Source: Marsupella aquatica
Taxonomy: Eukaryota; Plantae; Marchantiophyta
Reading direction: 5' to 3'
Assembly: GCA_973895155.1 (NCBI GenBank)
Contig: OZ316895.1
Span: forward strand, 17,873,437-17,937,436
Length of the DNA stretch: 64,000 nucleotides
The position numbers and the translations under genes are program-made. Positions within the stretch are counted from its first letter, which is position 1; each line of letters begins with the position of its first letter. The notes beneath the pieces are model-generated. The model had not been told where the DNA came from. It saw nothing but the letters and a program-made list of their open reading frames with translations, and made no database searches. Shown here in pieces: positions 8,536 through 64,000 of this stretch.

Positions 8536-8536
8536 C

Positions 8537-12395: not shown

Positions 12396-12935
12396 CTATA
12401 ACTTTTCCCTGAGCAACAGCGGGAGCTTCACTATAAAGTTGTGAAGCTGCGTATGTAGGATCTCTTGCCCCGCCAACTGGTTTTGGTAATAAGTGATGAC
12501 CTTTTGGATATCACCCCTGAATCTCATCTCCGTTACACATTTTTGAGCGTGTCGCTCCGGGTACTTGGTGGTGACATGAGCATGGAGACCCTCAACCAGG
12601 TTTTCCCAAGTTAACGGCAAGGAGGAGTCCTCTCGCGACTTCTTCCAAGACTTGTACCAAGTCAGGGCATAGTCCTTTAGGTAAGGAGCGGCTGCAGTAG
12701 CCCAAGTGGAACGCTCAACACACGCTTGGAGATGACTCTTCGTTGTGGAGAGCCAACTCAAGAACTTTTTTCCACTTTTCTCATAGGCCCCATCGTAAGT
12801 TGGAGGAGTCGGTAGCTGGTTCACTTGGAACATACTCCGTCCAACTACCATTCCCCCCTCGAGACGCGTTGCACTGACTACCCAGACTAAGTAAGCACTT
12901 AATCTGGGCCCCCTTTTTGTGTTCCAACTGCTCAT
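12396..12935 (-). pseudogene. gag: Retrotransposon gag fragment (copy 2)
   Basis: PPTYDG...FLSWL...APYLKDYALTWY...LTWENL capsid-like motifs. Confidence 0.8.
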
Positions 12936-16001: not shown

Positions 16002-16125
16002 TGCGCCATCGCGAGTACAAACCTCCTCGACACCGGCCAATGTAACAGCCCCCAGAGCAAAGCGAGGCAGACCACCAGGGATCAAGGACTCCCAGCCTCG
16101 CCAACGTAAAACTCCAGCAGCAAAC

Positions 16126-25123: not shown

Positions 25124-27622
25124 ATGATGTATGACTGTGACATTTGTGGATGTAAGGGTTTCAAAAACCCTGGGGGCTTAGCATCACATAAGGCAACCAG
25201 TCGTGCTTGCAAATTGGCTGGTGTTTGCAAGAAGAACACTGACATGGGACCCCAACGGGAGATTGAACAAACCTGTGATTTGGAACAACAGACGGCAGAT
25301 GATTTTATTAACTTGATGGATCCATTAGCATCTAAGTTTTCTACGCCAGAAGCCAACGATGTTGAAGATGTGATGTGTACTCCGTTCAGTGAGTTTTGTA
25401 AAGGTAGCAAACCGAAGCATCGGTTTGATTCTACATTACGTCTTGTGGCCTTTATACGACAATGTAGAAATACCATGGGCCTTTCTGTGAAAGACATTAG
25501 AAGGCTGTTAGGGCTGCTTTTCCATCCCAAGTTTTGTTTGGATGGTATCACTGTAAAAAATGCAAGTGATCTTCTTAAGTATGAGAAGCAGATGGCGAGA
25601 ACTCATTGTACAGAATGGAACCAAGTGATAGTCCGAGAGAGGGATGAACGTGTGCCGGAGTTGACACTACACTATCAAGATCCAATCGAAGCATTGTCCC
25701 TGTTATTCTCAAATGCATGCAACAAAGAGGATTTTAAATTGGGTCCTACTAGAGCAAACTCAAGAGGTTCTTACAGTACTCCAGACACTGGACAGTGGTG
25801 GAGTAAAATGCAGGTGAGCTTTCATACTTTGGAATACATTTCTTGGGTTGGATTTTATAATCAGCTTCATGATAATAACACTATGTCTCTCTTTGTGATC
25901 GGCATGTAGGATGAAATTGATAAGAAGTGCCCTGGCGGAGTCATTGCAGCGGTGATTCTTTACTCTGACCAAACACCATTGTCAAATAACCAAAGAGTCA
26001 GTGGGTACCCATTGATGATGTCTTTGGCAAACATTGCATGTGCTGGAAGACGTGAGAAGTTTGGTAATGCCTTGTTGGCCATACTCCCTACGTATGGAGC
26101 CTGCGATCCAGATATTACAAATGCAACCAATCCGACTCTTCTCAAATCTTCTTTGCTACACAAGTGCTTGAGTATAGTGTTGGCACCATTGAAAGAACTG
26201 AGTTACATGTAAGTGATCAAACTGAGAAACTGAGTTACATGTAAGTGTTCAAACTGAGTTACGTGTAAGTGATCGAAGTGGCTATCTATTTGATGAAGAC
26301 TTGAAATTCTGCTGCACTAATGCATCAATGTTGTATCTGTTTCAGAGGTTTGCCATTGGAAGATCCTAGCGGATCACAGAAGTGGGTGTTTCCATTGATT
26401 TATGGATATATTGGGGACCATCCAGAAACCTGCAAGGTGACATGCACCTTTGATTCAAATCGATGTAATTTCCCTTGCAGTGTTTGCTTGTGTCCTAAAG
26501 ATCAGCTGAATGCAGTGGCATTGAGACATGAGTACAGAGAAGAAGCTCAAATGAAAACTATTCATCGTGAGATGATCAGTTTACCTACAAATATGACTAA
26601 TGAAGTATCCAGACTAAATTCAATACATCCGGTTGAGGTATGTTAACAAGTCCTTCTCTTTTTGTACCTAGCAGTCTGTTTTTACATCAATATTGATATT
26701 TGAGTCTTTTCCTATAGGTCAATTTTGACACTTGTGATTGATTGTGATGTGCAGTGTGCCTTGTGGGATTTTTTTGGTGGAAATACTATCCTTGGGAATC
26801 CCTATAGGTCTGTTCATCCCGATAAAATGCACCAATTTGACTTAGGATTATTCAAAACTTTTATTAGCATTCTCAAAGCGATGGCAGTTGAAGTGCCGAG
26901 AGTAACCTTCAAGCATAAAGCATTGGACATCTTAGATAAAAGGATGGCTTTAGTTGCACTTAATCATAGGTATCCAGAATTCAGATTGCCTGCTTGTAAG
27001 GGGAGAACTGGATATTTTACATCTAACGCCACATTCCAAGCATTTGAGCACCGTTCGGTGTTCCAAGTTATTATTCCGTTACTGCTGGGAGTGTATCCAA
27101 CACCCGTCATCATCAACGATTACTTGCCATTGGTAAAAAAGATTGCACACCCACAGACCTTGAAAGCTCTCGTGAAAGGGAAACTGCTCTTGATAAGGTA
27201 AGTATGAGCATGGAAGTTCATATTCTTGTTAAAGTTCAAATAGACTTTAGATAGAAAAATGTGTGAACAAAATACTCTTTATGAAGTAAGTCTGATTGAA
27301 ACTCCGAAGTCAAATACTTCTGCGGTGTATAGCAAGTTTTTATGTAGCTATGTAATGAATATAATTATACCAATAGTTCTGTTGCCCGGGCCCAAGTGTT
27401 TGACAAGTGGAATTTTTGTTCTTGGATTTGCAGGCTGTACGTTCAGGAGCTAGTGTGTTGATGGGCTTGAAATTACGTTTCCAAATGGAATGGTTACAAA
27501 GAAGACCTGAAGATGTACCTTCCCGTGGAAAGGGTCTTCTGACTGCACAACCTGAAATTAGAACGAATCTGAAAATGACTGTTGAAACCTATTGTAGAGA
27601 AAACGATTTACATGATTTGGAG
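25124..27622 (+). pseudogene. Plavaka-type transposase, intron-containing, apparently internally deleted (exons ~25124-25813, 25910-26208, 26346-26637, 26755-27197, 27433-27621)
   Basis: N-terminal C2H2-like finger; VILYSDQT..GYPLMMSLANI; PLIYGYIGDHPETC; PDKMHQFDLGLFK. The first three GT-AG introns preserve the frame. Confidence 0.85.
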
Positions 27623-40700: not shown

Positions 40701-42154
40701 TTGGTTTGAGTGGATATGCATTGACGCATGTCATAAGGGATGAGTTATGAGTACTCTTGGAGTAAGTGCTTTTGACCCTTAACCCTGTTGGAGTAGCCCA
40801 AGTGTATTACCTCAACAGACAATCATGATAGCATTCTAATAATACACAGAGACTGGCCCTGGATGATGCAATGTAGCATGACACTATGTTGTGATGACAT
40901 GAATTCAAAGTTAAAAGTCCAGATTTTGGCTGGTGACCATGATATTTCCTTACTGAAGCCAAATTTGGCTTTCCACAACTTTCATGGCTGTTCTTGCAAC
41001 TCAGCCCTTAAGGCCAACTCAACTTGTTCGGGCTCCACTTTGAGGCTGGGCTTTGAGACTCCCTATTGATACTGCTCTGCTCTATCCTGACCTAACAACC
41101 TGGCATGTCAGACAGGAACGTTCATGGCCCCACCATTTCCGGGTCCCATGAAACCGTCTACACTCTACAGGTCCCTATCAAAGGTCATTCGGGTCGCCTC
41201 TCTGCCAGCTATAGTAGTGGGAAGGCAAGTTGGTCAAATTAATGTCATAAAGTGCCCACGAGAGGCCCACCCGAGAGCCAGAGATCATTCATCAACTTAT
41301 CCACTGGCAAAAGCTGGTTCGCGATCAACGGCGGTGGCTGTGAGTTTGCACGGATGCGCACATCGCTAGATTAGTCAGAAGACGTCGCGCCAATTCAACC
41401 GCAATTAGAGGGAAGCATCGATCCGCCACTAGGTAAGAAAGCTGGGCCGACCATTACCATATTGCATATCCTGTCCGAATACATCACTTCGGATTCGGAT
41501 GCGGAGAAGATAATATCCTGTCGCTAAAATTGTAGTGAGTGCTTGATCGTCTTTGGGTTCCACGGCAAAAATGAATTTCAAAGTGTCACAGTGTCCTGCC
41601 CTCCACAAGAATTGCAATTCGTCTGCCGAGCATCTTCCTTATTATACTGTAAACGATAGAATAATGAAACAAACACGAGCACCCTCGTCCATGCAAATCC
41701 ACCACATTATGCTGACGATAGAGACGAATACTGTACTTATCTGAGTAAAATCCCGGGGTCAAATTACGGATCCCAATGCCCTGGATGACCTACTGTAGTA
41801 TTTATGAAGATTTGCCTATTAAGTTTGGCATCTACGCCATTGAGAAAATGATGATCATTCCACACGAACAACACTGAGGGACACCTACCCAAGTATCATC
41901 GCCACTGTTCGTTTGACTGGGGATTCAGAAGAGTGCGGGTCTGGAGATGCTTTCTGCGCAGATCGGCAACCAGTAGCAAGTCATAAGCCAGTACAAGATT
42001 GATGCAAATCCATTCTTTCAGTGCGAGCATACGGACACAAAACACCTGAATGATTTGGTTTAAGTGCGAACCCTCGAGCTCAACAGCAGAAGCAAAAATA
42101 GTAGGTAGTCATTTACTTGAGTTGCACTAAATTCTAGAAACGGTTCAAGCGGTG

Positions 42155-42912
42155 TTAGTTACCGCGGATGCTGGCTACTCCCTCGGACAAATAGGCCACC
42201 GCAGCCCAGATTATGCCTGGACTGCCAACAATTTGCAAGCTGGACTTGATAAACGGTAGGAGCCTGTAATCGTCGCGAGATTCTTCGTACATAATCGCCA
42301 CGACGGAAAACGCGAGTGCCAACAACCGATCCTCAATAGAAGACCGAGCGACCGAAAGAATGATAGACGAGTTCCTATCCCGTTTCTGGAACTTCAAGAA
42401 CTGTTCGATATGTGGAAGTGTGTACCTTGCTGAGATCAATCCCGAGGAGCAAGAACAAGTATTGCAAGTAATAATCTCCACCAGTGCCCGTCTACAATGT
42501 CCTCCCCTCTCTAGCCCTACCCAGCGAGGCCGGGACGGTCATCGCTCTCCTGTCTCTTCCATTGAACACCCTCCGCGGACATTCGTCCACTTTCGCTACT
42601 TCTGCTCCTCTGCAATCCTCTAAGCGTCCGCTCTCTTGCGACTACTACTGCTTTTGTTGCGAACTCTTTTCTGCCAAATTCGTTGTCCTTCGTCGTTGTC
42701 ATTATTTTTTTTGCCGCTGTCCTATAATCTTCTCTACTGAGCTCGCTCACCTGTTGCTGCGTCTGCTTAGACCTCACTGAGAGTAGGTGTTGTTTTGGGT
42801 ATCTCGGACACGAAGTGGGAGCGTTAAAACCAATCGCAGTCACAAGGAGCACTGCGAGCAGTAGAGTCAGAGCAGATGAAAGGAAGGCTACGTGCGCCAG
42901 CTGAGAAGCCAT
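42155..42912 (-). pseudogene. Frameshifted gene fragment with N-terminal signal/TM anchor (type II membrane or secreted protein-like)
   Basis: MASQLAHVAFLSSALTLLLAVLLVTAIGF hydrophobic N-terminus; second frame 42155-42481 ends near a possible GT donor. Confidence 0.35.
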
Positions 42913-42944
42913 GAATAAAGTTAGTGCGCCAATGGACGACGCTT

Positions 42945-44410
42945 AACATGTGTTAATACCGATCAAATGCACAGAATGGCGGGCCAGCCCGGCCAGGTCA
43001 CGATCCGTCTCATACATTCTGCTCAAACCTCTTCTACTTTACGCAATACCTGCAGCTTGTTGTTTCTTGTTTCCCTGTCGTGACTGCTTTCCTTTCCTTT
43101 CCTTTCCTTTCCTTTCCTTTCCTTTCCTTTCCTTGTTCCTTCCGCGTGCACCGAGCGATCCCTCAACGATAGATTCACAGGAAATTCCGCGTGCACCGAG
43201 CGATCCCTCAACGATAGATTCACAGGAAATTGACTGGCTATACTTTACATCAGCCTAACATGTGTGACCACCAATCAAATGCGACGGGATCGCGGGCCAG
43301 GCCACGATCCCTCTCATCCCTCCTGCTCGAACCATTCAATCCTATTGTATTGTATGCAACACCTACTGTTCGTTTCTTCTCTCCTCGTAACTTCTTTCCT
43401 TTCCTTCCCTTCCTTTTCCTTCTACCTTTCAAGTGGAGCAAGCGATCCCTCAACAATATCTTCACAGGAAATTGAATGGCTATACTTTACAGCCGGTCTA
43501 ACATGTGTGAACATCGATCATATGCGACGGAATCGCGGGCCAGGCCACGATCCCTCTTATCCCTCTTGCTCAAACCATTCGATGCTGTTGTATTGTATGC
43601 GATACCTGCTCTTCGTTTCTTCTGTCCTTCTCGTGACTCCTTCCCTTCTACCTTTCCCTTGTAGCAAGCGGTCCCTTAACAATAAGTTCACTCAAATTAA
43701 CTGGCTACACTTTACAACCTGCCTAACATGTGTGAACATCTACCATTTGCGACGGAATCGCGGGCCAGGCCTCCCTCATCAAACCATTCGATCCTTTTGT
43801 ATTGCCTGCCATATCTGCTCTTCGTTTCTGCTCCCCTTCTCTTGTCTCCTTCCCTTCCCTTCCCTTCCCTTCCCTTCTTCCTCTCCCGTGTAGCAAGCAA
43901 TCCCTCGACAATATGTTCACTGGAAATTAACTGCCTACACCTAAACTCTACAACCGGGCTAACATGTGTGGACACCGATCAAATGCGACGGAATCGCGGG
44001 CCAGATCACGATCCCCCTCATCCCTCCTGCTCAAACCATTCGATTCTATTGTACTGCGTGCAATACATGCGCTTCGTTTCTTCTCTCCTTCTCGTGATGT
44101 CTTTCCTTCCCTTTCCTTCTTCCTTTCTCATGGAGCAAGCGATCCGACCTCTCAACAATATATTAACCTGAAATAAACTGCCTATACTTTACCGTCAGCC
44201 TACCATGGGTGATCACCGATGAAATGCGACGGAATCGTGGGCCAGGCCACGATACCACTGATACCCCCTGCTCAAATCATTCGATCCAACATTATTGCAA
44301 CACCTGCCCTTCATTTCTTCTCTCCTTCTCGTGATTTCTAGCCTTCATCCTTTCCCGTGTAGCAAGCGATCTCTCAATAGTACGTTCACAGGAGAGTGAC
44401 TGGCTATACT
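42945..44410. repeat. Tandem satellite, ~230-310-bp unit x6, with embedded (TTTCC)n/(TTCCC)n tracts
   Basis: AACATGTGTG..ATGCGACGGAATCGCGGGCCAGG..TGCTCAAACCATTCGA..AGCAAGCGATCCCTCAAC..TTCACAGGAAATT recurs at ~42945, 43258, 43500, 43726, 43961 and 44203. Confidence 0.9.
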
Positions 44411-45139
44411 TGACAATCGAGCAGTCTTGAATGTGAAAAAAGCAACCAATCTGGTCGGATCCGGTGGGGTCCCGGGAGTACAGTATCTTTGTGCCACTTG
44501 ACCACCAGGACAAAAATAATATATTGTTTGTTTGGCCGGAACGGTAAATTTTAGATTTTAGCGAGTGTACGGTGGCTTGACAAGAAATAGGGGGCCATTG
44601 CTTTTTGCTTTGTCCCCGTATGATTAAATATTGACCTTATAATGAGTAGAATGACAGCAAGATTAATATGGACTTTACAATGAGTAGAATTAGTTACAGG
44701 TGGCTTTGCAAAAACTCCCGGCCCATTCAGGTATGATGTCCACCCATCCTGCATGACAAACAATGCATGGGCTGGGTGTCCATAAATAATGGAAAATGTT
44801 AAATAAAAGATACCTTACCAAATATGTTATTGTGCCAAAAATGTCTCGATGGAAGTCATTGAAGGAAAGACCTGTCTTGGAGGCAAGGTGAAATTTTGAG
44901 CCCTATACCCATGCATTGCATAATTATCATTGTGAGTGTGTTGTGCTTGTGGTTGGGTTGGGGCAGTTATGCTGTGGTTGTTGAAAGTCAACTTTTGTCG
45001 TCATGGTGGCCCATTGATTGTTGTGCAAGTGTTATCATTGGTTGTGTCATCTTATCATCTATGTAATCATGTTGTGGTTGTGGAAGTGTCTTATAATCTA
45101 TGTAATCATTTTAGGCCTCTTCCCTCTAAAATGTAAGAA

Positions 45140-48932: not shown

Positions 48933-50334
48933 AGTGGTTGACCTTGCCACCCAGCGCCCTCACCAATTATCCCAACACTCACGCCTAAGTGCCCCTGGTG
49001 CCCAAACGCCTCCATGGAATACCTCAAGCGAGCACCCTAGTGCCCCGTGCACCACCAGCGGCCCCTCCCATACAAAGTTGCACTTGCTTTCCAACCCGAC
49101 CGCTACTCAATGGTCCTCATTGTCTGCACAAGCAATCAAGCGTCTTGGTAAGTAACCCTTCAGGATCTAGATCTCCCAAGTCTAGCATCCTAACTCAAGC
49201 TCAACAGACATTGGTAAGTAGGTCAGCAATAGGTCCTCCCGATGCCATAAGCCGGAACCAGAATTGATGCCCACTGTTTGTCCAGAACAACTCCTTCCTT
49301 GGGCGCGGCCCGGGTTCCCTCTCGTACCTATCCATCACCAACTGACCGCCTTGCCCCAAGGACATGCTCATGGCCCAAATTGCGTAGCTTGTCCTAAAGC
49401 TTGTCCCTACACACCGAGACCAGAATGGCCTCGACTCTAGCAACCAACTCTCGGTTCTTGCCCCACTAATGGTCTAGGGGCCAAGTGCCCTTTGAACTCA
49501 ACCTCCACGCCTACTTGGCCTTGCCTCCCCAACGTAAGCTCCTTTGAGAGACTGAACGCGGCTTGGCTGCTATTTCGGCAGGATTTGGCAAGCGGGCGAG
49601 ATAGCACCCACAAACCTTGAGAACATACGGCGTCCCAGATCTAGCTGAGCTCAGGAGGATGTAGCCCTCCTCGAGAGCTTTCCAACATACCCAAGAAGTC
49701 CCCCAATGGACTTCTCGTTGGGAAGTTATTGTCGTTTCCGTTTGATGTTTTCCCTTAATGTCGTGACCGCCGCGGCTCATGACTTTGGCTCGCCCTTAGC
49801 CCCCCAAGGAGACACCACTCCCCTTATATATGCTTCTGGATACCTGTCACCCCCGGATCAACTTTGGTCCCCAAACTTTTGGTCCCCAACCCGGACCAAC
49901 TAGCAACGCTCATAACTTCCTAGTTAGGTGTCTGCAAGCAGAGTGCCTTAGCCCATTGTGATCGAGCTAACCCAGTGCTCATGCCTAGGCCCTCAGCTCT
50001 CATTGTCGCTTGGGGCCATAACTCGTGCCCCAAGCGTCCGTTGTCCATGGAGTCAACTCCATTGGCCTTGGACCCAAGAGGGGCTTTCACTCAAGCCCGA
50101 CCCTTTTCCCTTGCCTAACCAGCTCTCAGCTAGTCTAAGTCCTTAGTGTGTATCACCAGCTTGGCGCCTTGCCTTCGCCAGTGCCACATCTCATTGCCCA
50201 CAAGTCTCCCCGTGCTAAGTCCTCCCCGAATGGCCTTTCCGGGCCTGGACCATAAGGGAGCTCGGCATTGGAGTCAGCGACGTTGGAGTCAGCGACGCCG
50301 GAGCTAAGTGTTAAGGTAGTCAAGTTCCACGACT
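48933..50334 (-). mobile_element. Solo LTR of the AGT...ACT chromovirus family (~1.4 kb) inserted in LINE ORF1
   Basis: Full-length homology to 3200-4957 minus the MITE; flanks GTTTT/ATTTC may be a decayed 5-bp TSD. Confidence 0.88.
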
Positions 50335-52018
50335 ATTTCCATTGAGTCATGTGGCTCTTGTTCCCAATTGATGATTGTGGGCAGGCTTGGGTCAATTCCT
50401 AGGCGTCTCAATCTCATTTTGAGTGATAGCAAGGGGGGTAGTAGTGTCCATGTCCTTTGAATTGGCAGCGTTGGGGGTTTCTCCCAACTCATAAGTTTGT
50501 TTTGCATGTTCCTTCACGCCCTTAGTAGTGTGCTCTTTCTTCCAAGCGTATGTTGAGCGATCCACTTGGACTACCACAACTGCTCCTTACCTGAAGGCTT
50601 GTGGCATCGGGAGAACCTATTGCTTCCACAACTAGGCGTTGCTCTTGAATAAAATTGTCCGCAGAAGGAACCTTGCTTTCCGTGTGCCAAGCTTCAGGAT
50701 TTATGAACCAGGAGGGCGGGCGTCCTCCCTGTGGCCAACACAAATGGCGCAAACTCCATTGCCAAATGCTTGGTCAAGTTATACCTAAACTTGGCCATTG
50801 TTAAGTGTTTTGCCCAATCCTTTTGATTGGCCATCACAAAGTGACGCAAGTAGTCCTTCATGATACCATTCACCCATTTTGTTTGGCCATCTATCTCGTG
50901 ATGATACGTTGATCCTCTAGTAAGGTATGTTCCAGATAACTAGAACAACGCCTTCCAGAAATGGCTTGTAAACTTGGTATCGTGGTTGGACAGGATATGC
51001 AACGACAATCCCCATTGTCAAAAGACATTGTCAAACACCAGACCGACAACCTCTCGGGCCAAAACCATTTTTGTAGTCGGCAAGAAATACACCATCTTGG
51101 AAAAACAATCCACGATTGTTAAGATGGAGTTATTGCCATGGGACTCCGGTAACCCAACAATGAAGTCCATGGAGATGGACTCCCATGGAGCCGCAGCTAC
51201 TGGTAAGGATTGCAGAAGTCCTCCTTTTTCCCTATAGACCGTTTAGTTCTTTTGGCACGAGTAACAACTTTGCACGTGGCGAAGAACCAATTGCTTCATG
51301 TCCAGCCAATACACATCTCGTAACATGCTGCGATAGGTAGCTGCTTGTCCGCCATGCCCTCCCCAGGGCGAGTCGTGGTACTTTTGCAGAACCTCTAACC
51401 TTAGAGACTCCAAGATGTACACATGCCTCTGCTTGTATTGTCATAACTGGACATTATGTGTCGTATCCAACCCCAATGAAACGTGCCTGACCTTGCCTTG
51501 CATGGTTACCCCATTGCTTTGCCATTCCTTGGCTAACCTGTCATCCCCATATACACCTCGGCCAGAACCCTTGGCCACTCGGATTTGAGCATCGTGATCC
51601 CTTTGACACGATGATGGTCCCTATGCAATAACGCGTCAGCTACCATATTTGTCTTCCCAGGAACATGGCAGACTTCAAAATTGAAATCCGCCAAGAACAT
51701 CTACCAACGCATTTCCTTGGGGTTCAGCCTTGGCTTAGAACTGAAATACCCCATCGGCAAGCTATCTATGATTGTGTATTACCACTTTGGGACCATTCTT
51801 GAGGTAAATCTCCCACTTCTTTAATGCGTAGATCACTGCATACATTTCCCTTTCCGGTGTGATCCAATGATTTTCCAACTCACATGACTCAAAGGCCACA
51901 GGACGCCCATCTTGGTGAACACAGACGCCAATGGCGTAATCACTTGCATCTGTCCAAATCTCAAATGCTTCCCCATCTCAGGTAACTTTAGAACCGACAG
52001 CGTTATCATTAGCCGCTT

Positions 52019-55000
52019 TGTCACCTGCTTATCAAACGATTTACACGACAAATACCTATTTCCTCCTACTAAAATCATTTGTTATCGTATGACGGGAACG
52101 TGGAGGGACGCTATTCGGATTCTATTGCATGTAGGATGAGTATGTTTATTTCCGCTCCCAGAAATGTAGTTTTTGATCAAGTCTACCGACTAGTCCCACT
52201 ACTTTTGATCAAGTCCCATGGACTACACCACCCACACTCCTACTGGTCGTTGGTGGAGTGCTGTCACCACCCCCTACTCACATGGTTGACCAAACCGTGC
52301 AAGGATTCCTTAGACGCTTCTTGGGAAAGAACACAATCGTGAACCAAAAAAAATAACAACACACCAAAAATTGAGGAATCAAACCAAATCCATATCTTTT
52401 GGCAAAACGTCGTAACACATTGCAAGGACAACCCGGCCTCTTGCCGTCTGCCCAGCTACTGCCTCACTGGGGCAAGTGCTACACCTCTACCTCACTACTC
52501 TGGCTTGATTCCCTCTTCTGGCTATGAGCTAACTTCCCTAAGCAAACACTAGACTGAGTTCCCCACCGATTCACTATGGGGATCCCCCCCTAAATACTCA
52601 AAACAACCCACCAAAGCACCCCTCACGGGGTCACAAGGATGGCGGCTTACCCTAGCGGCGCCGCTAAACCCTTCACTAAGAAACCCCTAAACTAAAAGCA
52701 TGCGGCACACACATGCTTCTAAAACCCTAAACCTTAAACTAAAAATTGGGCCGATGGTGCCTTCGATGGCGCCCCAACGTTACTCCGTGAACCGTGAAAT
52801 TGCAAGGAACCCCACAATGGCCAAAACTAGGCGCCCTTCCACTTGCACTTCTGAGTTCACCCTTGGATATCCCTCCTCCTCCTGATCATGAATCACTCAA
52901 CTGCTCTTGAAACGGACATCAGACGACCAAGTTATGGCCGTTTCAGTATCCCGTAAACCCAACTTCGCCGGACCCTAACTTGCTCATCCTAGCTCCGTTT
53001 GAGTAGCGCCACCTCTTGTTGGAATCAGCTCCGCGAGCTCTTTCCAACAAGCCCATGAGTGACCCCTCACAAAAAATTTGGAAAGTCAAGGGGCCGTACA
53101 ACCACGTCCGTACGACCACTCTAATCCTCATCCTCTTCACTCACGGTGCCCTGGCTTGAGCCCCGTGAGTGGGCCTCCTCATCACTCTCCACTGGAGTGA
53201 GTGCCACTTCACTCCTCTTCTTCTTCACCGGGGTACTCCTTGTGCTAGTGCTCCCCTGCTTCCTCAAATTGGCCAAGGCCTGCCACGCCTTAATGTACCC
53301 CTCACCAATGGTGTCCTTCCATAAGGCTGCCTCTTCACCGGACCGCAACTCCAACGGTAAAACCTGCCCGGTGACCATGGGAGTCCCAAGGGTGACAGAT
53401 CGGGGTGGCATCCCCGGGGTCCTCGTGTTGACCTGAGCTTCTTGTAACGATTTATGTACCTCCCTGAGCTTCTTCTCTAAGCTCTTGCTCTTCTCTTGAC
53501 TCTTCTTGGCTGCATCCAACAGGGGTCCATACTTCCCACTGACTTCCTTCACCACCATCTCAATGGCCCTGGAGATCAAATCCGGGGAAAGTGTGGAGCT
53601 AGGTGTGCAGGGGCTCTTCTGTTTCCCCAGACTCAAGGCCTCACTCCTCTTAGCCCTTGTCTCAAAGATCACCATTTGACTCCATAGTGCTCCCACCTGG
53701 GCTCTTAACTCCACCACTTCTCCAGAATTCTGCTTCTCTTTGGCCAATGCCTGTTTCAATACTCCAACCTCTTCCGCTTCCTTGGCCTTGGTGGACAAGG
53801 CTCCCTTCAAGTTAGAGATCTCTACGTGAGCTGCTTGGAGAAGTTTAACCTTCTCATGAATGGCCTCCTCCTTGGCCTTGATCACCTCCTTCATAGACAG
53901 GGCACTCTGCTCCAAAGTCTCTACTCTGGCGGTGGCCTGCTTGAGAGAATCTCTCAATGCGTGGACTAGCTTGAGTCCCTCATGGACTCCCTCCCGGAAT
54001 TCCCGTAACTCTGCCAGGTAGACATCAGGAATGTCGTAGACCAGGGGCTCCTCCGGATCTCCCACAAGTGATTCAAGCCACTCCAATGTGGAGTCCTCAT
54101 CCTGGTTTTTTTCCTCTCTATTATCATCCCCAACCGCTGACGATGATCCCTCCGTTAGTTTCCCCACGATGGTAGTGGCAATACTCCTGATTTCCGTGGT
54201 AAGGGATGATCCAGAGTCTTCCTGTCCCGGGGAAACAATCCACCCTTCTGCTCTAGCCAGCAAAAATGACCCCATCAAGTGTACAGCCCCACGTGGTTTC
54301 ACACTCCCGGGATTGGCGTCCAATAGCTTCTTCAACCCATAGTACCACCATCCGTACACATGGGCTGGATAGTTCTTGATGTCCATAGCTACCACGAAAT
54401 GCTCTCCATTCACCACCCCGGATTGCACGTTACCTAGGACCCGTTGATGAACTTTGGCCAGAAATCCCTTGTGCTCAGCATCCTTGACGGCGGAAAGAGG
54501 AATGGAAGTAGTGGAGATGGGATTAATCACCCAACCGGCCACCATTGTCAACGTGAGTTCTCCCCTTATGTTCCAAGGTGTGAATGAGAATTGTTGGTTC
54601 TCCAGAAACAGAAGCTTAGCTAACTCCACATGGGGCACTACCCATTGGAGACATTCAAAGTAGATTCCTTCCGTACGTAACTCCATTCCGGCCTCAATGT
54701 TCCAACTCTTCCCCGAAGGGATTGTAATCTCCACCTTCATGAACTCCGTGAGCCTGGTGGCTTGAAAAATATTCCTACAATCCTCCATCACCTTGGCGGA
54801 GGTTTTGGGATAAATTCGACGGAAAACCCTCCTACTCACCGGTGCAGAACTTGCCGCCAGTCCAGTACTCATCATAGCTTCTCTCTCTTCTCTCTCTCTT
54901 GCAATCAAAGTCTCAATGTAGTCACGATAAGCAGCCTTGTATCTCCGAATGCGTGCCGCACTAAACTCCGGTTGATCTAGCAACCATGCATCCAGAAATC

Positions 55001-56214
55001 AAATCCTCAATCACCAAATCTTGTCACCCGTAGCAATGTCAATTCCCTGGCCCGAAACGGCCCCTGTATCCTGATCAATCAATTACCCTCAATTCCCTCA
55101 GAAGCCACCCCGTGCTGCTGCCGCTAATGCCCAGAAGAATCGTGCCAACAAGCCTCAACAATTGACCATGAGAAAGAGCTTCCAAAATAATTGCAAAATG
55201 TGGAGCGAGCTTTCGGCAAGAGTTGAGAGAGAGCCCAAGTTTTTGCTTTTGGCAATGAGTGGGTCTTGCAAAAGAGAGGAAGTGAGAAAATAGGAAGGAG
55301 AAAAAAAACCCTGTGGCTCCTTCATGCCATGCGCCCCGGCTGCCCTGGTACCCTGGTACCCTGGCTCGCCTCCCTACGCCCTCCTCTCACCAACTTGCGG
55401 GAGCCACCCGATAGCACGTGGCCCTATGCAGGGCTCGCACTGCGCCCTGTTACCTCCAAGGCCCAGGGATTTAATTCCCCCCCCCCTCTTTTTTTCTACA
55501 CGCTGCCCTATGCAGCGCCTCGTGTATCGGCAGCCCTGCGCCCTTCTCCTGGCTCGTGGGAGGGTTTAATACCCCCCCTTACTCGCCCCTCTCTTTGGGG
55601 CACGGCTCCCGGTACGCCTTCCGTAGCGCTCCCCTCGGTATGGGGAATTAAATTCCCCCCCCCTCCCAACTCCACTCACGGGAGAGTTAATACTTCCCCC
55701 GACTCCTTCCTCCTCCTCGGCTGTGGCCCGGCTGCCCTCGCCCCGGCTGCCCTGGCTCCAGCTGACCTTCGCGCCCAGCTCGCTCCGCGCCCGGCTGACC
55801 TGCACCCCGGTTGACCTTCAAAGATGCCAGGTGGCGTCCACAGGGGCTGCCCCTTATGGACCCCTTTACTCCAACAACTTAACCTCTCAAAAGAACTCAT
55901 TCTCTTCTTTTGGCCCTTGTTGTGGTTATACCCATTTAACCCCAAAAAGAAAAGTTAACCTCTTGGACTTATAGGGGGAACTTGACAATGGTTCAAGCGA
56001 AAAGGCCAGGCCACCTATTTGCCCCCCCTCTAGGTTGCCGTGACCGTTTAGAACAATTCTGAGAAGGAAATAAAGTAAAGTCCTCCTGGCAGCACCAACT
56101 TGAAAGGACGGAATTAACTCAAAAATTAAAAAATGGCTTATTTACAGTGGTTATTTACATCGCACAACCCAGTAAACAATTATTGAGGATTTTCGGTGAC
56201 AGGAACCAATCACA
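52019..56214 (-). mobile_element. 4.2-kb TG...CA insert (putative giant solo LTR) containing a long ORF
   Basis: TGTCACC...ATCACA; TSD CGCTT at 52014-52018 and 56215-56219; no internal direct repeat or pol domains seen. Confidence 0.85.
53121..54983 (-). CDS. 620-aa retroelement accessory protein: globular N-domain, long coiled coil, basic NLS-like and acidic tail
   Basis: Uninterrupted ORF; heptad-rich LKQATARVETLEQSALSMKEVIKAKEE...; PVKKKRS. True start uncertain. Confidence 0.7.
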   Translation of the reverse strand: MLDQPEFSAARIRRYKAAYRDYIETLIAREREEREAMMSTGLAASSAPVSRRVFRRIYPKTSAKVMEDCRNIFQATRLTEFMKVEITIPSGKSWNIEAGMELRTEGIYFECLQWVVPHVELAKLLFLENQQFSFTPWNIRGELTLTMVAGWVINPISTTSIPLSAVKDAEHKGFLAKVHQRVLGNVQSGVVNGEHFVVAMDIKNYPAHVYGWWYYGLKKLLDANPGSVKPRGAVHLMGSFLLARAEGWIVSPGQEDSGSSLTTEIRSIATTIVGKLTEGSSSAVGDDNREEKNQDEDSTLEWLESLVGDPEEPLVYDIPDVYLAELREFREGVHEGLKLVHALRDSLKQATARVETLEQSALSMKEVIKAKEEAIHEKVKLLQAAHVEISNLKGALSTKAKEAEEVGVLKQALAKEKQNSGEVVELRAQVGALWSQMVIFETRAKRSEALSLGKQKSPCTPSSTLSPDLISRAIEMVVKEVSGKYGPLLDAAKKSQEKSKSLEKKLREVHKSLQEAQVNTRTPGMPPRSVTLGTPMVTGQVLPLELRSGEEAALWKDTIGEGYIKAWQALANLRKQGSTSTRSTPVKKKRSEVALTPVESDEEAHSRGSSQGTVSEEDED

Positions 56215-57476
56215 CGCTTGAGTTCTAGGAATGCTAACTTGCATTCCTGTGTCCACACAAACACTTTGTTTTTCAACATTAGCGTGTCTAGGGGCCTCGC
56301 GATCCTCGCATAGTCTTTCATGTATCTCTGATAGAACCCCGTGAATCCTAAGAAGGCTCTAACCTGCCTTACATTGGATGGGCGCGCCCATTCTTTGATG
56401 TCCTTAAGCTTGTCCTGACTAGGCATAATCCCCTCCGGGAGTAAAGGTATAGCCGAGGAACTGAATCTCATTCATCACAAACTTACTATTGCTAGGTTTA
56501 GCAAAGAGACGAGCCTTACAAAGGCAAGAGAACACTTCTCTGAGCAACTGCTCATGTTCCTCCAACGTTTTCGAGTAGATTAGGATGTCGTCAATAAAGA
56601 CGACCACTCCTTGGTCCAAAAAATCATGAAAGATGGTATCGGGGATGGTATTCATCATCTTCATGAACGTTGCGGTTGCATTACACAACCCGAATGGCAT
56701 AACCAAAAATTCATAGGATCCAAACCTTGTGCGCATCGCGGTCTTATACTTGTCTCCCTTAGCCATGCGGAGCTAGTAATACCTAGACCGCAAGTCCACC
56801 TTTGAAAACTTCTTAGCCCCGGAGAGGCAATCAAAGAGGTCATCCATATGAGGTAACGAGTACTTGTTCTTTACCGTCTGCTTATCGAGGGCCCAATAAT
56901 CTAGACGCACAATCTCAAAGTACCATCCTTTTTGGACACAAACAACATGGGCGCCCCATAAGGACTCTTACTAGGACAAATGAACCCTTGGTTGATCAAC
57001 TCTTCCAAGGCGTTCTTCAACATCATTTGTTCATTCAGGTTTAGACGATAAGGAGCTTTAGCCTAAGGAGCCAAACTTGGCTCCAACTCAACTTGGTGAT
57101 CCACTTCTCTCTGCGGGGGTAAACCTTTAGGTAGCTTCTACAAGAGCACGTCATTGAATTCCTCTAAAATTTCAGGAATTCAACCGCAGTCGGGCCCAAC
57201 CTTAGCTGCCTTAACCTTCGGTTGCGAAGTAGCCTCCTTAACTAGGTGGATCGAGATGAAAGAAGAAACATTCATGTCCACCTTTGAAGTCTTTCCACCA
57301 TTGCTTCACCGATACACACGGAGACAACCACGACACTTTACTTACTTTGAGAAATCTTTCTTTATTTTCGGTAATTTTGTGTACAACGATGAGCTCATCG
57401 CCCTTATTGGGACAATGGAGCACCTCATCCCCAGGCTTCAAGGTAACACTGTGATTTCTGAGATATATAACCTACC

Positions 57477-58091
57477 CCTGGCCCCCCACTCCCAGTAAAA
57501 AATCTCTACCTCCTGTGAACGGACCCCCCTCTAGTACCCCAAGCTGTTATTATTTTTGAAACAATAAAAATTTGTCTTCTTATTTAGAAAAAAAACACAT
57601 TTTGACAATACTTAATATCATTGATATAATTATAAAGTCCAGATTTGAGAATTTGTATATAGGCTTCATTAGTTACATTTTCTTTTATTCAAAGATCTTC
57701 CCTCCCTCATATCCAATGGGCAGGGATTTTCCCCATGTGTTTCCTCATAGGGCAGTTCAAAAAACCCACCCTAAACTCCTCAACATACCCTACCCTAAAC
57801 CCCAGAACCCCGCCCACAACTTACAACGGCATAGACATGTGTACCTATTAGATGATGCCACATGTACCACTAAGCTGATGCCGTGTGGCGAAGATGATTT
57901 TATACCCCCTTCCCCAAAATAAATGAGAGCGGAATATCAAGTGCCCTTCCTTATTTGGAAAGTGACATTTGTATAAAAGAGTGGGTTGCTTAGTTACAAG
58001 CCAATTCTAAAAATTACTTCAATATGAATGAAGTCAACCCTTGAATCGTTCTCACGTCCAACCCATTTTACCTAAGAGTGGAGGCCCAAGG
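57477..58091. mobile_element. 615-bp non-autonomous DNA element, 8-bp TSD AACCTACC
   Basis: TIRs CCTGGCCCCCACTC / GAGTGGAGGCCCAAGG; TSD at 57469-57476 and 58092-58099; empty site in copy 2 near 11665. Confidence 0.85.
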
Positions 58092-60547
58092 AACCTACCG
58101 ACAAAATGAAGTCTATGGCTTGACCATCTAGAACGTAGAACATCTCTTGACACACAAAATTTTGTTGTTCGCCTATGACCTCTACTCAAAGTCTATGTAC
58201 CACTCTCGACACTATCCCTTTTGTGTCGTTGACGAACTTGCACACTAACAATTGTAGTAATTAACTCTTGCACGTCCACCCCAAGACGTGTCACCGCCTG
58301 CCCACTTATGAAGCAGGCGGTCGTCCCTGTATCTACCAAAGGAACACCCAAATTACCGTTAGAAGTGACATTCACAAAAATTAGCTTTTCAGGATCCATT
58401 GTCTTAACCTTAGGTGTCTTCTCTTGCAACAATACCTTCTCTCCGGCAGGAATATTCCCTACAGGATTCTTGTCAGCTACTAAGGGTTTGGTTAGAGCGA
58501 TACTTACCTTAATGCCCTTCTACCGTCCATCTCCGCTTGGCTTGCCACCTTTTGTGGAACAATCCTTACTTTGATGGCCTATAGCGCCACACGTAAAGCA
58601 CAAACCTTTAGCCCGCCTATGCTCCGTGAGCGCTGCTTCTTGGCTTTCTGTGCCAATGAGGTTTCTTTCTTGAAGTTTCCGGCCTTCCGGTTTCACTTTG
58701 CTTCTCCGTTCTGGGGCAGGGGATCCAAACCACCGGCCCCCGCCCCCTCAGGTTGCTTACGCTTATTCCCAGGACCTTTTGCTTTCCTAGCTTCCCCCTT
58801 GGATCCCTTCCCACCCACCTTGGCCAAGCCCGACTGGTTATTCACCAACGTAGTGGCCTTGTCAAAGGCGTCCGAAAGCATTTTAAACTCATGACGCTTT
58901 TCCTATAACTTTTCCCTGAGCAATGGCGGGAGCTTCACTATAAAGTTGTGAAGTTGTGTATGTAGGGTCTCTTGTCCCGCTGGGATACACACCAACTGGT
59001 TTTGGTAATAAGTGATGAACTTTTGGATATCACCCTTGAAGCTCATCTCCGTTACACATTTTTGAGCGTGCTGCTTTGGGTACTTAGTGGTGACATGAGC
59101 ACGGAGACCCTCAACCAGGTTTTCCCAAGTCAACGGCAAGGAGGAGTCCTCTAGCAACTTCTTCCAAGTCAAGGCATAGTCATTCAGGTAAGGAGCAACT
59201 ACAGTAGCCCAAGTGGATTGCTCAACACACGCGTGGAGATGAATCTCCATTGTGGAGAGCCAACTCAGGAACTTTTGTCCACTTTGGTCATAGGCCCCGT
59301 TATAAGTTGGAGGAGTCGGTAGCTGTCACGTCGTCAGCCTAGGCCTTAACCCAGGCTTCGGCTTAGACAGGCACATCCTTCGTCAAAATGAGGGTTCGGG
59401 CAGGAAGGGATGCACGGAATGCACCTAACTCATGTAAACTAGCGCTAAGTGCGCCTATTGTCATATACGGACACCTCCTAGGTATGGTTTGTGTTCCACC
59501 ACCGGAACGTACCTTAGTCGATAGCAGGATCGACCCCGGCTTACGGGCTTCTAAGCCTTCGTGTTGTCCGCCTTCGATCTGGATTCGATGATATAGGTAC
59601 TCAACCCGGGCTCGCAACCACTACCCGCAAGCTGCACCCCGTGCCCGACTTGGGTAACACGTTTGGCCAAGCGTTGGCACCTATACATGAGATTCACACA
59701 TACATACGCGCACAAGCATACAATCTCGATTTACACGAAGGAAATAATGGGGAAGGATTTTACTACATAGGAGACATATGCGTACACTTAGTTGACCCGA
59801 AAGCTCCAGAATGAACAGGTCCAAGGCCGAGGGTGTACACTACAACGGAGCCCGGCTTCGCGCTCGCCCAGCGAGATTAGTCCCACACCCTCCCCTCGAT
59901 ACTCTTTCACTCCCAGAGGTCGGGACTCCCCGCACATACCGCGGATGTCCAACACTGAGACTAAAAACCCTCCCTTGCCTCTACCGAGGGGTGCACTAAA
60001 TACTAAGGGCCGAGGAACGAAGTGCCCTTGCGCCCAAAGATTCGCTAACTAAGGTCCTAACTAAGCTGGCTGTCAGGCCGGAAAACGGCTTGTCTTATTA
60101 GAAGATCCTAATCTACGCTGATGGTACAGCATGGCAGTGCTGCTCTAACTAGGGTAGGTACTTGTCCCTATAGCCTAATTGAGCTATTCCTAACTCTACT
60201 CTAATCCTACTCCGCCGCTAATGTCTGGCACGCTTGCCAGAACCGCCTGAGTGGGAGCGGCTATCCCGCTGCCTTCTGAGTCTGTCGGCGTCCTACTTGA
60301 GTAGCTGGACCTGGTCCAGCAGAGATTCGTTTTCCCGCTTTGCCGCGTCTACCTCTTCCGCGGCCTCCTAGCATGCCTCCTCCAGTTGTTGGGTGTCGCT
60401 TGTCAGCTTGTCCACCAACTGGGCCTGTTTAGTGGCTTCTCCTTGAAGCCATGCCACCTCTGCCTTCAGGGCGTCAATCTCGGCTGTGTCCCGTTGAGAC
60501 CTGGAATCAGCTTCCTCCAGATCCTTTTGCCAACTGACGGCTTGCCC

Positions 60548-62743
60548 CTACAAACTGTGAATCTTGGTTTGGAGCCGTGCAATCTTGGCGTCCTTTCTGA
60601 GCCCGACCTGTACTGCCAACGCTGCTTGGGCTCTAGCCTCGGCAACCTGGTCCTCCATGGCCGTTACCTGAGGCCGTAGTTGCTGGAGTTCAGCCTCCAA
60701 GGTTGCCACTTTGTCCTTCAGGTAGGCAGACTCAACCCGATATCGCTCTATTCTCTGTGCAGTCTCTGCCTGCGCATGTCCTGCCCTTATTGCCGCAACC
60801 AACTCCTGGTTGAAGAAGTAGGCCACCCTCCGGGCCATGTATTCCCCGGTGTCCCGAGAGATCTGTTGCGAGAAATCTCCCAACAACCCGTTCATAAAAG
60901 TGCCCGGCGCAAAGAGTTCCGGATGGTCTAGACTGTGTCCCTCTGGATTCGGGCACGGACAGACTCCAACCCGTGCGGGAGTAGGAGTGGACACATCCAG
61001 CCCTTGAGGTAAGTCGGTCGAAGGGGCTGGTTCCACTGGAGGTGGGTGGTTCTCCTGCTCCACCGCGGGGGGTGGCGGAATCTCCCCGACCACCGTGGTA
61101 TCTGCTTCGGGTACGGCTTCATCCGGCCCAGCTTCGACGGCATCGTCCCGATTGATCACGTCTAAGGTCGCAATGATGTCAATGGGTATGCCTGGCGGGG
61201 CGGCAGCGGCGGGTTGCGGGGCCGGGGTAGCAGGACTTGCAATTGCCAGACTTCGGGCCTCGGGCTGCGGTCGCCTTACTTGGGCTGGGAACACCCATTT
61301 TGGTGGGGTCAGCTCGGTCTCATTGAGACGCGGGAGGCTCCGGCGGTCGAAATGAGCGTACCACTCGAGGATGATTTCGACGTGGCTAGAGAAGTACGCC
61401 CTCCCACCAAGGTACAAAGTTTTCCTTCTTCGCTCCATCTCCTCGTGGAACTTCTTGACGAAGAAGGACGCCCACTTCCTGGGCCGATAGTTCTCCACCT
61501 GGATAACCTGAGCGGCCGATATTTCTCCTCTAGGTTCCATCATGTGGAGGGCATACCGCTGAAACTCTAGGTGTTCTGCTACCTCTGGGATGAGGCACGT
61601 CCTCATTAAGAACCCATTGTCCACTACCCCTTCGGTCGGGAAGCTAGATGACTGGTATTTAGCTCCCTTGCCCCCAGGAGCCCGCGACTCTACCCGGTTT
61701 ATTCCCTCGGGTAGGCCGAAAATCATCTTCAGACGTGCCTCATCGAGACACATCACTCTCCCGTGCGCTCGAGTTTGTTGACAGGCCTCGTCGAAGTTCT
61801 GAATGAACTCCGACATATCCTGTCCGTAATACCTGCTTCCGTTCCAAGGGAGAGAGGCAAGGTGCTCAAACCCTTGGGTCTTCAGATAGCATGCATGCTT
61901 GGGGTGGAGGATGTTCTTGTGAACGTTGTCCCCCATGCGATGCATGGTCAGCTTGGCTACTGCAACCGTGGCCAAAGGCAACCCAGATACGGCTGCGGGC
62001 TCCTTCCTCTTCCTACCCCGAGACTGATTCCCGGGGTGACTAGAAGAAGGGGACATCTCTCCATCCTCTCGGTCAGGTAGTAGTAGCGCGACTGCCATGA
62101 GTATTGGTGCCGGGGCTGCTAGCGTTACCGTGTTGTCCCCTCGGGCTTGCTGGGGTGGTGCGGGGTTGTTCATACCCCGCGGTCGTCGATTCAGAGGAGG
62201 GTGAGCCTCCTCGTCCTCGGAGCTGATATGTACCGCATTCACCACGGATCGTACTCGGAGAGGTGGTGGAACCGGTGGCGGGGACCGGCTTGGCTGAGGC
62301 CGAGGAGGTGCAGGTGCAGGTACAGGCACAGTTTGGCAGGCACTGGTCGTTGAGGGTAGAGTTGCCATGAAGTTCTGCAAGTGCAGGTGGAGATTTTCCG
62401 ACGCAAGTGAAGATGGTCCTGTCGACCGGGTAGTGTTGAATTCACCATTGATGATAGCCCGGACCCGAGCGGGGATGTGGTCAAAGTGCTGCCGCTGTAA
62501 GTCAATCATGCCCGGGATATTGAAGACCTCATCCAGAAGCCGAAGCAGTGCCTCCCAGAAGCCGATGTATTTGCCTCCGTCGAAGAAGTACCCTGATACC
62601 TCTTCGGGTTGGTAAAGCTTGCTCTGGGACGGGTACTGAAAGTTAAGGAGATAGTGGTGGCGGCCTGCTAGGCGGATGGTTCTCTCGTATTCGCGTTCGA
62701 TCTCATATCGGTGCGGATTGGCATGTTTCAATGAGTCAGCCAA
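60548..62743 (-). CDS. 731-aa accessory protein (original ORF probably ~62814-60218) with an Athila/Tat extra-ORF-like domain and C-terminal coiled coil
   Basis: SEFIQNF..AHGRVMCLDEARLKMIFGLP resembles plant transposon extra-ORF domains (Transposase_32-like). Frame continues past isolated TAG codons on both sides. Confidence 0.7.
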   Translation of the reverse strand: MADSLKHANPHRYEIEREYERTIRLAGRHHYLLNFQYPSQSKLYQPEEVSGYFFDGGKYIGFWEALLRLLDEVFNIPGMIDLQRQHFDHIPARVRAIINGEFNTTRSTGPSSLASENLHLHLQNFMATLPSTTSACQTVPVPAPAPPRPQPSRSPPPVPPPLRVRSVVNAVHISSEDEEAHPPLNRRPRGMNNPAPPQQARGDNTVTLAAPAPILMAVALLLPDREDGEMSPSSSHPGNQSRGRKRKEPAAVSGLPLATVAVAKLTMHRMGDNVHKNILHPKHACYLKTQGFEHLASLPWNGSRYYGQDMSEFIQNFDEACQQTRAHGRVMCLDEARLKMIFGLPEGINRVESRAPGGKGAKYQSSSFPTEGVVDNGFLMRTCLIPEVAEHLEFQRYALHMMEPRGEISAAQVIQVENYRPRKWASFFVKKFHEEMERRRKTLYLGGRAYFSSHVEIILEWYAHFDRRSLPRLNETELTPPKWVFPAQVRRPQPEARSLAIASPATPAPQPAAAAPPGIPIDIIATLDVINRDDAVEAGPDEAVPEADTTVVGEIPPPPAVEQENHPPPVEPAPSTDLPQGLDVSTPTPARVGVCPCPNPEGHSLDHPELFAPGTFMNGLLGDFSQQISRDTGEYMARRVAYFFNQELVAAIRAGHAQAETAQRIERYRVESAYLKDKVATLEAELQQLRPQVTAMEDQVAEARAQAALAVQVGLRKDAKIARLQTKIHSL

Positions 62744-62910
62744 GTGCCCTCCGATAGATAGGAACTGAGTCTAGAATCGTATGGCCAAACTGGAAAGGAT
62801 CATGTGCGACATTCAGGGGAGATAGCAGCTGACTAAGGAAAAGCGAGAGAGTTGGGATCGAAGCTGGCGCGGGAACTGGAGAGCTTGGTGCACTGCAAAG
62901 GATCGGCTCC

Positions 62911-62920
62911 CTTTTATACC
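62911..62920 (-). promoter_or_regulatory. Putative TATA box upstream of the insert ORF
   Basis: GGTATAAAAG on the minus strand about 100 nt upstream of the inferred ATG. Confidence 0.45.
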
Positions 62921-63593
62921 CTGAGAGCTCGTTGATCGCCCGACGCCTCCTCGTCGATTATAGGTCAAGCGTTTCACGCTCGCAGTGTACCGGCCCCTTC
63001 TCCAGTCCGGGTCAGCTCATGTGCGTGGCCGCCTCTCGGAGTTCATTATATGGACCCGAGGGAGGGGGAAAAAGGGCCCATTACACGCTCGCAACCCGGG
63101 CGTGCGAATGGCGACCCGCCGCCAGCCCGAACATGAATTCCCCTTATTGACTAATGATTTCCTACTCATAATGCCTACCTAAATAATGTCGTTATGCTAA
63201 TAATAATGGCCTAAGATACCCCTAACGCGCGTGCTAAGCGCGGTTAGACCGAATTACTCATTACCCGCTGTACCAACGGCGTCACAGTAGCTGGTTCACT
63301 TGGAACATACTCCGTCCAACTACCATTCCCCCCTCGGGACGCGTCGCACTCTGACTACTTGGACTAAGTAAGTACTTAATCTGGGCCCCTTTGTGGTGTT
63401 CGAACTGCTCATAAATGAGTCGTTGGTCTTGAGTCAACGGACCCAAACCTTTGTCAGCGGTTGGGCCCTTGCGGGTTGTATGAGGACGGTCCTCCAACCA
63501 TCTTTCCTTTGCGGGCCACCTGTCCTTAGGTTCCTTTGTGGATTTTGGTGACACCCCCGCGACCTACGGGCACCATGACCTCAGCAAACGTTC

Positions 63594-64000
63594 TAGCACG
63601 CCTAGACCACTTTAGGTCTTGAAATTTTTATGTGGTAACAAATGGTTTGCCCATAAGGCTCATGCAAACCAGGTTGGTATGCGCATTCCAGACTTAGGAG
63701 ATTCCAACCTATCCCACTTATCCAAGTAGGATGCTAGTCCAAGCGGGTAAGCTAACTCCAAACTAGTTAGACCCATTGTTCTCTCCTTGGGGTACTCCCC
63801 TTTGGTTTGAACCAGCCCGCCCACAGATGTGAGGCGGGCACCATCAACTTCCACTTGCAAAAAGCAAATTGGCCGCCCAACAACCTCTAGCGCCCACGCA
63901 ATCCAACTTTATCCTCAAGAGGCCTTGAGGAGTGAAACTAGGATACAACTCACAAAGTTAGCTACAACTGCCTGTACTAGTTCACAACGGCGGTAGGCCG
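63594..64000 (-). mobile_element. Chromovirus copy 4: end of chromodomain and 3' UTR, runs off the right edge
   Basis: Colinear with 10754-11176. Confidence 0.88.

Follow-up and report, generated by a model that had tools for sequence, protein, structure and literature searches.

What is the 4-kb segment with TG..CA ends at 59324–63286 in this 64,000-nucleotide stretch of the Marsupella aquatica genome (hereafter the window), and what might the gene that occupies two thirds of it do? A preliminary description had proposed a solo LTR that carries its own accessory gene. The segment and its surroundings are as follows.

59324–63286, minus strand: TG..CA unit of 3963 bp, likely a solo LTR, with its TGTGAC start at 63286 and its GTGACA end at 59324
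59319–59323, plus strand: TSD GTAGC, left copy; one copy only at the paralogous empty site near 12812
63287–63291, plus strand: TSD GTAGC, right copy, at the unit's right border
58903–59318, minus strand: gag of the host, a chromodomain-type Ty3/gypsy element, the part downstream of the insertion (blastn and profile)

The TSD is real, since the paralogous gag copy (~12812–12816) holds a single GTAGC and continues into the right flank of the unit. The inverted ends were also recovered, with TGTCACGTCGTC at the start of the unit and TGTGACGCCGTT at the opposite end, read inward, alike at 9 of 12 positions. The same scan, however, finds 32 pairs in the window with a 9/12 terminal match and a TSD, so that these two features alone are not above chance and would also be compatible with an accidentally open frame, or with a captured host gene that happens to lie between fortuitous TG..CA ends. 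The boundaries are proven instead by the empty site in the gag paralogue, by contigs joining 59318 directly to 63287 in three of four public runs (5, 2 and 6 contigs), and by a sharp break at 59324, where 12, 15, 18 and 18 contigs of the four runs (63 in total) diverge from the unit. Together with homology of the ORF to its relatives over its full length, the empty sites and the sharp family boundary refute capture or chance. Contigs of the public runs show that the family spans the whole 4 kb; at the right end, among the contigs listed, one extends 324 letters past the unit. Its TG..CA ends and 5-bp target duplication thus belong to a dispersed repeat.

In the host gag, a match to Ty3_capsid (E 7e-5) lies below the cut-off, and a Chromo domain (E 6e-17) is present in the host paralogue at 9688–10209. 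The pol of the same host contains a further insertion, absent from the preliminary description.

52019–56214, minus strand: second unit, built like the first, 4196 bp long, with TG..CA ends and TSD CGCTT
53121–54998, minus strand: stop-free 625-codon frame with a coiled coil, in the second unit

The empty site of this second unit lies in a paralogue near 8278. Blastn finds no match between the two units, and the 625-codon ORF shows no homology to the gene of the first unit by BLASTP, profile or phmmer; its single-sequence model (pLDDT 36.6) was too poor for a fold search. Both units in the window are solo. Within 59324–63286 a PBS, gag, pol and a second repeat are all absent, in agreement with the original claim that an internal LTR pair and pol are missing: when the window was searched with the unit by blastn (word 9, E ≤ 0.01), the sole match was the unit itself, which leaves neither a direct repeat inside it nor another copy in the window, and tblastn with Ty3/gypsy pol matches host copies only.

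60218–62812, minus strand: 865-codon gene, TAG-broken at codons 14, 755, 815 and 840

The proposed minus-strand frame does reach 60218 and is interrupted by isolated TAGs only, the last of which, codon 865 (60220–60218), closes it; the ATG is at 62812, not at 62814. Between the TAGs at codons 14 and 755 lie 740 open codons, against 68–69 stops listed per frame for the remaining two minus-strand frames (unit plus 300 bp per flank). With four in-frame TAGs this gene copy is dead. Such stops belong to the class of change that deamination of methylated C at CAG or TGG codons would produce. Among the best-supported 40 of 689 rows, 16 family-versus-window differences are listed in the ORF (codon positions 6/6/4); they are mostly private to the window copy, and for these reasons no selection estimate is drawn from them.

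A word-indexed search with the 740-aa frame scored none of 7996 candidates, longer forms (1587–4530 aa only) were found in 0 of 2429, and a degenerate pattern of the conserved motif hit no locus in viral contigs. The same motif's five loci in metagenome contigs are attributable to chance, as neither tblastn nor blastn aligned any of the five with the window. The Calypogeia accession neighbours CAM6101869/70 and 79/80 were considered as an LTR pair and rejected, their order being mirrored.

62912–62918, minus strand: TATAAAA, likely gene promoter by its motif, 106 bases before the ATG, with a CT-rich leader after it
63044–63263, both strands: seven CATTA words upstream of the TATA (three on plus, four on minus), candidate binding sites
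59324–60217, minus strand: non-coding 3' part of 894 bp, which its motifs make a candidate for the end of U3 together with R and U5

The TATA box placed at ~62915 was found at 62918–62912 and is likely the gene's own promoter, judging from its sequence and position; the gene would then lie in the sense strand, probably within U3. CATTA occurs seven times upstream against 0.74 expected, and any 5-mer is so frequent in 4 of 500 shuffles, in one of eight tests for which region and word length were picked after inspection. No target-motif array is present in this copy, in which we found no tandem repeat and no enriched 7–9-mer, only the dispersed two-strand 5-mer. The last 0.9 kb, which may represent R and U5, holds AGTATTTAG at 60004–59996 (minus strand) and a TGTA/T-rich tract near 59770–59680. 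That AGTATTTAG is common to the 3' parts of both units is within chance (7 shared 9-mers against 4.6 in shuffles), and a 12-base word common to both is within or near chance.

TG..CA ends with a 5-bp TSD are the signature of a retroviral integrase, and a solo LTR is the reading of the unit that we hold with good confidence. Its minus orientation we infer from the ORF, the TATA and the gene model P0048, which is the pol of a relative with no chromodomain listed. An integrase would have placed the element in another element's gag, where ends, TSD and empty site are observed, and recombination between two identical LTRs would then have excised gag-pol, so that a single LTR stayed behind, flanked by the TSDs. 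Everything tested is compatible with the original idea of an accessory gene that sits in the LTR and persists with it in the solo state. No shared flank could be read from the contig ends: beyond the 59324 break, flanks in the 63 contigs agree at only 0.40–0.41.

These unlike flanks, and the solo state of both window units, would also suit an LTR-less, non-autonomous 4-kb element with its own gene, whose TGTGAC/GTGACA ends are recognised by a DDE integrase or transposase that mobilises it in trans. We regard this as improbable, since the unit has nothing by which it could be copied (neither a PBS, nor a PPT plus repeat, nor a long terminal inverted repeat), its ends and TSD are of the retroviral type, and P0048 links a relative to pol; moreover, solo LTRs are often more numerous than full elements (among sag contigs, 490 of 527; PMC4667437, extract).

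Marginally less probable still is that an Athila-like element with short LTRs and a sense 3' ORF between them lost part of its sequence and spread as a non-autonomous derivative; a deletion product of this kind is what the preliminary description had named as the finding that would overturn its proposal. Extra ORFs of this class are indeed usually found in the interior of the element (PMC7264820, PMC6317226), and the left 1 kb has a higher summed contig depth, which is not a copy number, in two of four runs. A purine, PPT-like run followed by TGTG near 59890 on the minus strand resembles a short-LTR start, but was rejected as such because the opposite end of the unit is unlike it. A short-LTR derivative should keep two like ends, the common direct repeat that it needs to retrotranspose, and blastn found none; the deletion product is therefore unsupported. 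In addition, the family covers the whole 4 kb, and the same odd deletion would be required twice, in two unrelated units.

Structure prediction, which the preliminary description had called for, yielded a VANC21-like core.

62429–62812, minus strand: conserved N-terminal domain of ~125 residues, no known family (profile search)
61349–61969, minus strand: central domain, predicted VANC21 (PMD-like) fold (structure prediction and comparison)
60269–60778, minus strand: C-terminal coiled coil, residues ~679–848 (crude custom heptad score; Pfam matches all below cut-offs)

The N-terminal domain recurs in P0043 (iE 9e-9) and, with iE 2e-5 to 4e-4, in Calypogeia proteins, all recovered by a profile made from this ORF together with P0009 and P0033. 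An NLS-like basic patch, RGRKRK (residues 265–270), precedes the central domain, and a basic GKRAR end, common to the ORF and P0033, follows the coiled coil. The predicted fold matches VANC21 (PDB 9LNK, 9LNJ) over 201 residues at 9% identity. In the viral structure library nothing matched at E ≤ 0.001, the best TM being 0.22; Pfam PMD, Transposase_32, ATHILA and DUF1985 gave no profile match at curated cut-offs, and two profile matches to solved sequences (E 0.65–0.77) were rejected, both lying on the coiled-coil part. An Atlas feature search started from two Calypogeia relatives ranked the clusters Transposase_32 (0.84), ATHILA (0.83) and DUF1985 (0.81), scores that, being under 0.9, are leads only. 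The product is thus predicted to have the VANC/PMD fold in its core; homology adds the conserved N-terminal domain, the NLS-like patch and a coiled coil that would serve oligomerisation.

By analogy with VANC, such a protein may bind the LTRs of its own family through its core, block their silencing and act in trans. We propose anti-silencing as its function tentatively, at a little under even chance. The sole solved-structure match of the central domain is an anti-silencer bound to DNA, and rapid divergence between families (two unalignable window units, relatives at 22–50%) fits VANC-type family-specific recognition (PMC5735166, extract). It is possible, if rather doubtful, that the solo LTR instead encodes an activator of transcription, a chromatin factor or one that targets integration, or else a self-limiting repressor of the MAIN/MAIL1 kind: the unit contains no motif array, the N-terminal domain has no nameable counterpart, host silencing proteins have the same fold (PMC13547354, PMC5418596), and VANCs proper are described as dicot-specific (PMC13547354, extract). 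Overall, we consider it fairly probable that the unit is a solo LTR of a non-chromovirus Ty3/gypsy family with the whole accessory gene in its 4-kb LTR, and that the product is VANC21-like and likely anti-silencing.

To our knowledge, the thousands of extra ORFs in plant LTR retrotransposons are described in the internal region and have no known function; a VANC-like fold would suggest a testable one, sequence-specific counter-silencing. The literature outside subscription journals and Repbase yielded no account of a gene inside a plant retrotransposon LTR. The unit adds a further distinct family, its spread defined by its ends, plus a second unit with an unrelated ORF. A gene within the LTR would alter the arithmetic of host defence, as solo-LTR recombination would remove gag-pol and spare the gene, and every intact LTR left behind would retain a gene of its own that likely counters silencing. 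A speculative extension, which we consider unlikely, is that the move of a VANC-fold anti-silencing gene into a giant LTR took place in several unrelated Ty3/gypsy families of liverworts; each solo LTR that the host's removal mechanism leaves would then remain an independent gene, protecting its family from silencing in trans. If true, retrotransposon anti-silencers of this fold would long predate dicot VANCs. A liverwort retrotransposon with a VANC fold also bears on whether PMD/VANC arose in hosts or in Gypsy elements, left undecided by PMC5418596; capture of MAIN has been proposed (PMC13547354).

Among known systems, the gene resembles the accessory ORFs that non-chromovirus Ty3/gypsy elements carry, namely Athila ORF-1 (PF03078)/Transposase_32 (PF20167), Ogre PMD (PF10536) and Retand Transposase_28 (PF04195). 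Those ORFs combine a globular domain, an NLS-like patch and an SMC-like coiled coil (PMC7264820; PMC11963269, PMC6317226, PMC11728184, extracts). They are described in the internal region, whereas the ORF here fills a TSD-flanked unit that has none; it gives no Pfam match by sequence and has an additional N-terminal domain. Transposase_28 is described as restricted to flowering plants (PMC11963269), whereas the present unit is from a liverwort. MAIN and MAIL1, plant mobile domain proteins structurally homologous to VANC (PMC13547354), would belong to one fold class with our product by transitivity, but are host genes that promote silencing and show no sequence match to it. VANC21 of Arabidopsis VANDAL21 is likewise TE-encoded and shares the predicted fold, the coiled coil and a conserved core with variable linkers. 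It resides in a Mutator-like DNA transposon, whereas our gene, at 9% identity, lies in a retrotransposon-type unit with a 5-bp TSD, TG..CA ends and no transposase; VANC requires dense arrays of a 9-base motif (PMC5735166), and none was found in the unit. The sag gene of MMTV-type betaretroviruses also lies within the LTR, has a U3 promoter and survives mostly as solo LTRs (PMC4667437, extract); protein and host are unrelated, and the LTR here would be ~4 kb long, with an 865-codon protein of nuclear type.

The 3963-bp unit at 59324-63286 begins with TGTCAC, ends with GTCACA and is flanked on both sides by GTAGC. Because chance alone often yields a 9/12 terminal match next to a 5-bp duplication (an end scan returned 32 such pairs in the window), its boundaries were checked by other means. 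A paralogous host gag near 12812 provides an empty site, with one GTAGC followed by the right-flank sequence, and contigs from three of four public runs join 59318 to 63287, giving a unit-free junction. For the left end, the four runs contribute 12, 15, 18 and 18 contigs whose match stops exactly at 59324, and the outer letters of these contigs agree at only 0.40-0.41. Such unlike letters at a common break indicate many separate insertions with the same terminus. These observations support the TG...CA unit with target-site duplication (TSD) GTAGC proposed in the preliminary description. Each run gave between 6205 and 10624 contigs matching the unit or its 300-bp host margins, which is not a copy number, and 30/30 bins were covered; the runs come from two studies, and the window's own sample may be among them. 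The unit is a real feature, and plainly a repeat family over its entire length. A search for a second copy within the window, an internal direct repeat or pol found none, in keeping with the earlier claim that it holds no LTR pair or pol.

The target of both 4-kb units in the window is a minus-strand copy of a chromodomain-bearing Ty3/gypsy family, several nested copies of which (86-92% alike) occupy about 49600-64000 and 5500-13100. The chromodomain ORF end near 10190 recurs in the last bases of the window, a hint that the copies are arranged in tandem or permuted. The second unit sits in the same host element, has an empty site near 8278 and shows no relationship to the first in DNA or protein:

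52019-56214, frame on minus strand: second unit, 4196 bp, TG...CA, TSD CGCTT, ends TGTCAC and TGTGA
53121-54998, minus strand: its frame, stop-free, 625 codons, coiled coil

Its upstream region carries, by eye, four G-run/TAA/C-run words (about 55700-55480), and a 15-bp tandem repeat lies at 55727-55810. Elsewhere, 14334-18788 is a young Ty1/copia element with long, open gag and pol frames and 221-bp repeats 99.5% alike (14334-14554, 18568-18788). Fragments at 25028-27201 weakly resemble a Plavaka transposase (E 0.008, which does not reach the cut-off). The end scan also returned a 4178-bp TG..AT/CA-type candidate at 40892-45069 with TGTTG on both sides, which may be chance; it contains a degenerate, roughly 230-bp tandem array (42940-44416).

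On the minus strand of the first unit, TATAAAA (62918) comes first, then a CT-rich leader and, at 62812, the ATG of an 865-codon frame that ends at 60218, much as had been read from the sequence before, with isolated TAGs at codons 14, 755, 815, 840 and 865. The gene takes up 65% of the unit, and its full protein cannot be made by the copy in the window. The layout of the protein is as follows:

N-terminal domain, about 125 residues: conserved, present in Calypogeia proteins too
Linker 1: proline-rich, RGRKRK at its end
Residues about 285-490: central conserved domain
Linker 2: proline-rich, between central domain and coiled coil
Residues about 679-848: coiled coil
C-terminal end, after the coiled coil: basic

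A search of 1.84 billion representatives returned 32 relatives with an E of 0.001 or less; an organism name was attached to 9 of the 30 proteins looked up, in all nine cases the liverwort Calypogeia fissa, which makes a liverwort the probable source of the window as well. An intact relative of 906 aa (P0033) aligns end to end, with 258/916 identical positions (E 7e-83). Two split copies of a relative lie in mirrored order on one Calypogeia contig (P0037-P0041; CAM6101869/70, CAM6101879/80), suggesting an inverted duplication. A metagenome scan for the family gave chance loci only, which were rejected as relatives. One metagenome contig unrelated to the unit (L001:1-5573) forms an inverted repeat with itself from end to end (92%) and is probably an artefact of assembly or of long reads. 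A Pfam search of the protein returned no family at its cut-off, and a VANC21-like fold is predicted for the central domain with a borderline fold score.

We consider the first unit likely to be a gene-bearing solo LTR. The TG...CA ends, the 5-bp TSD and the lack of an internal repeat favour an LTR, and its size falls within the range described for non-chromovirus LTRs, which reach about 5 kb (PMC6317226). To this extent the evidence fits the earlier proposal of an accessory gene inside the LTR; the paired-LTR layout did not emerge, and the flanks of contigs breaking at 59324 held no readable PBS or PPT. P0048, one automated Calypogeia gene model, encodes RT, RNase H and integrase and then, in the same orientation, the final portion of the unit's domain, an order that places a relative of this domain downstream of a Ty3/gypsy pol, either as 3' LTR or as internal 3' ORF. 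The preliminary description had set against its own proposal a deletion product of a short-LTR element; such a product is expected to have two like ends, but these were sought and none is present.

In the proposed working, an integrase would have inserted a full element into the host gag, and recombination between its two LTRs would have removed all but one LTR, still framed by the TSDs. If the element is read on the minus strand, U3 would contain the gene together with its own TATA, the last 0.9 kb of the unit would contain main promoter, R and U5, and the poly(A) region would correspond to a TGTA/T-rich tract near 59770-59680; the positions of U3, R and U5 are those we infer. Alternatively, the main promoter could be the TATA at 62918, which would put the gene in R/U5. 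A TATA-like AGTATTTAG common to both units is within chance.

The protein would move into the nucleus and form oligomers via its coiled coil; by analogy with VANC21, it would bind the family's LTR and counter silencing. VANC21, the anti-silencing protein of Arabidopsis VANDAL21, is described as acting on YAGTATTAY arrays (PMC5735166); a motif array was looked for in the window's copy and none was found. Upstream of the TATA, CATTA occurs seven times against 0.74 expected (4/500 shuffles as extreme, region and word having been picked after looking), and these words are the only candidate binding motif in the unit. Since MAIN and MAIL1, host plant mobile domain proteins, are described as using the same fold for silencing (PMC5418596), the protein may act for or against it.

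The layout would be surprising and the proposed function is testable, offset by the broken copy and the borderline fold score. Extra ORFs of plant elements are described as internal (PMC7264820; PMC11963269; PMC11728184), and our literature search found no paper that reports a gene within the LTR of a plant retrotransposon, although related cases may exist in Repbase. The unit is not a VANC, as it belongs to a different element class and has no motif array, and at sequence level its protein falls in no Pfam family. In build, the protein resembles the extra ORF of Athila/Ogre/Retand. In gene placement, the proposed layout resembles MMTV sag, described as a gene in U3 with a promoter inside U3, surviving mostly in solo LTRs (PMC4667437).
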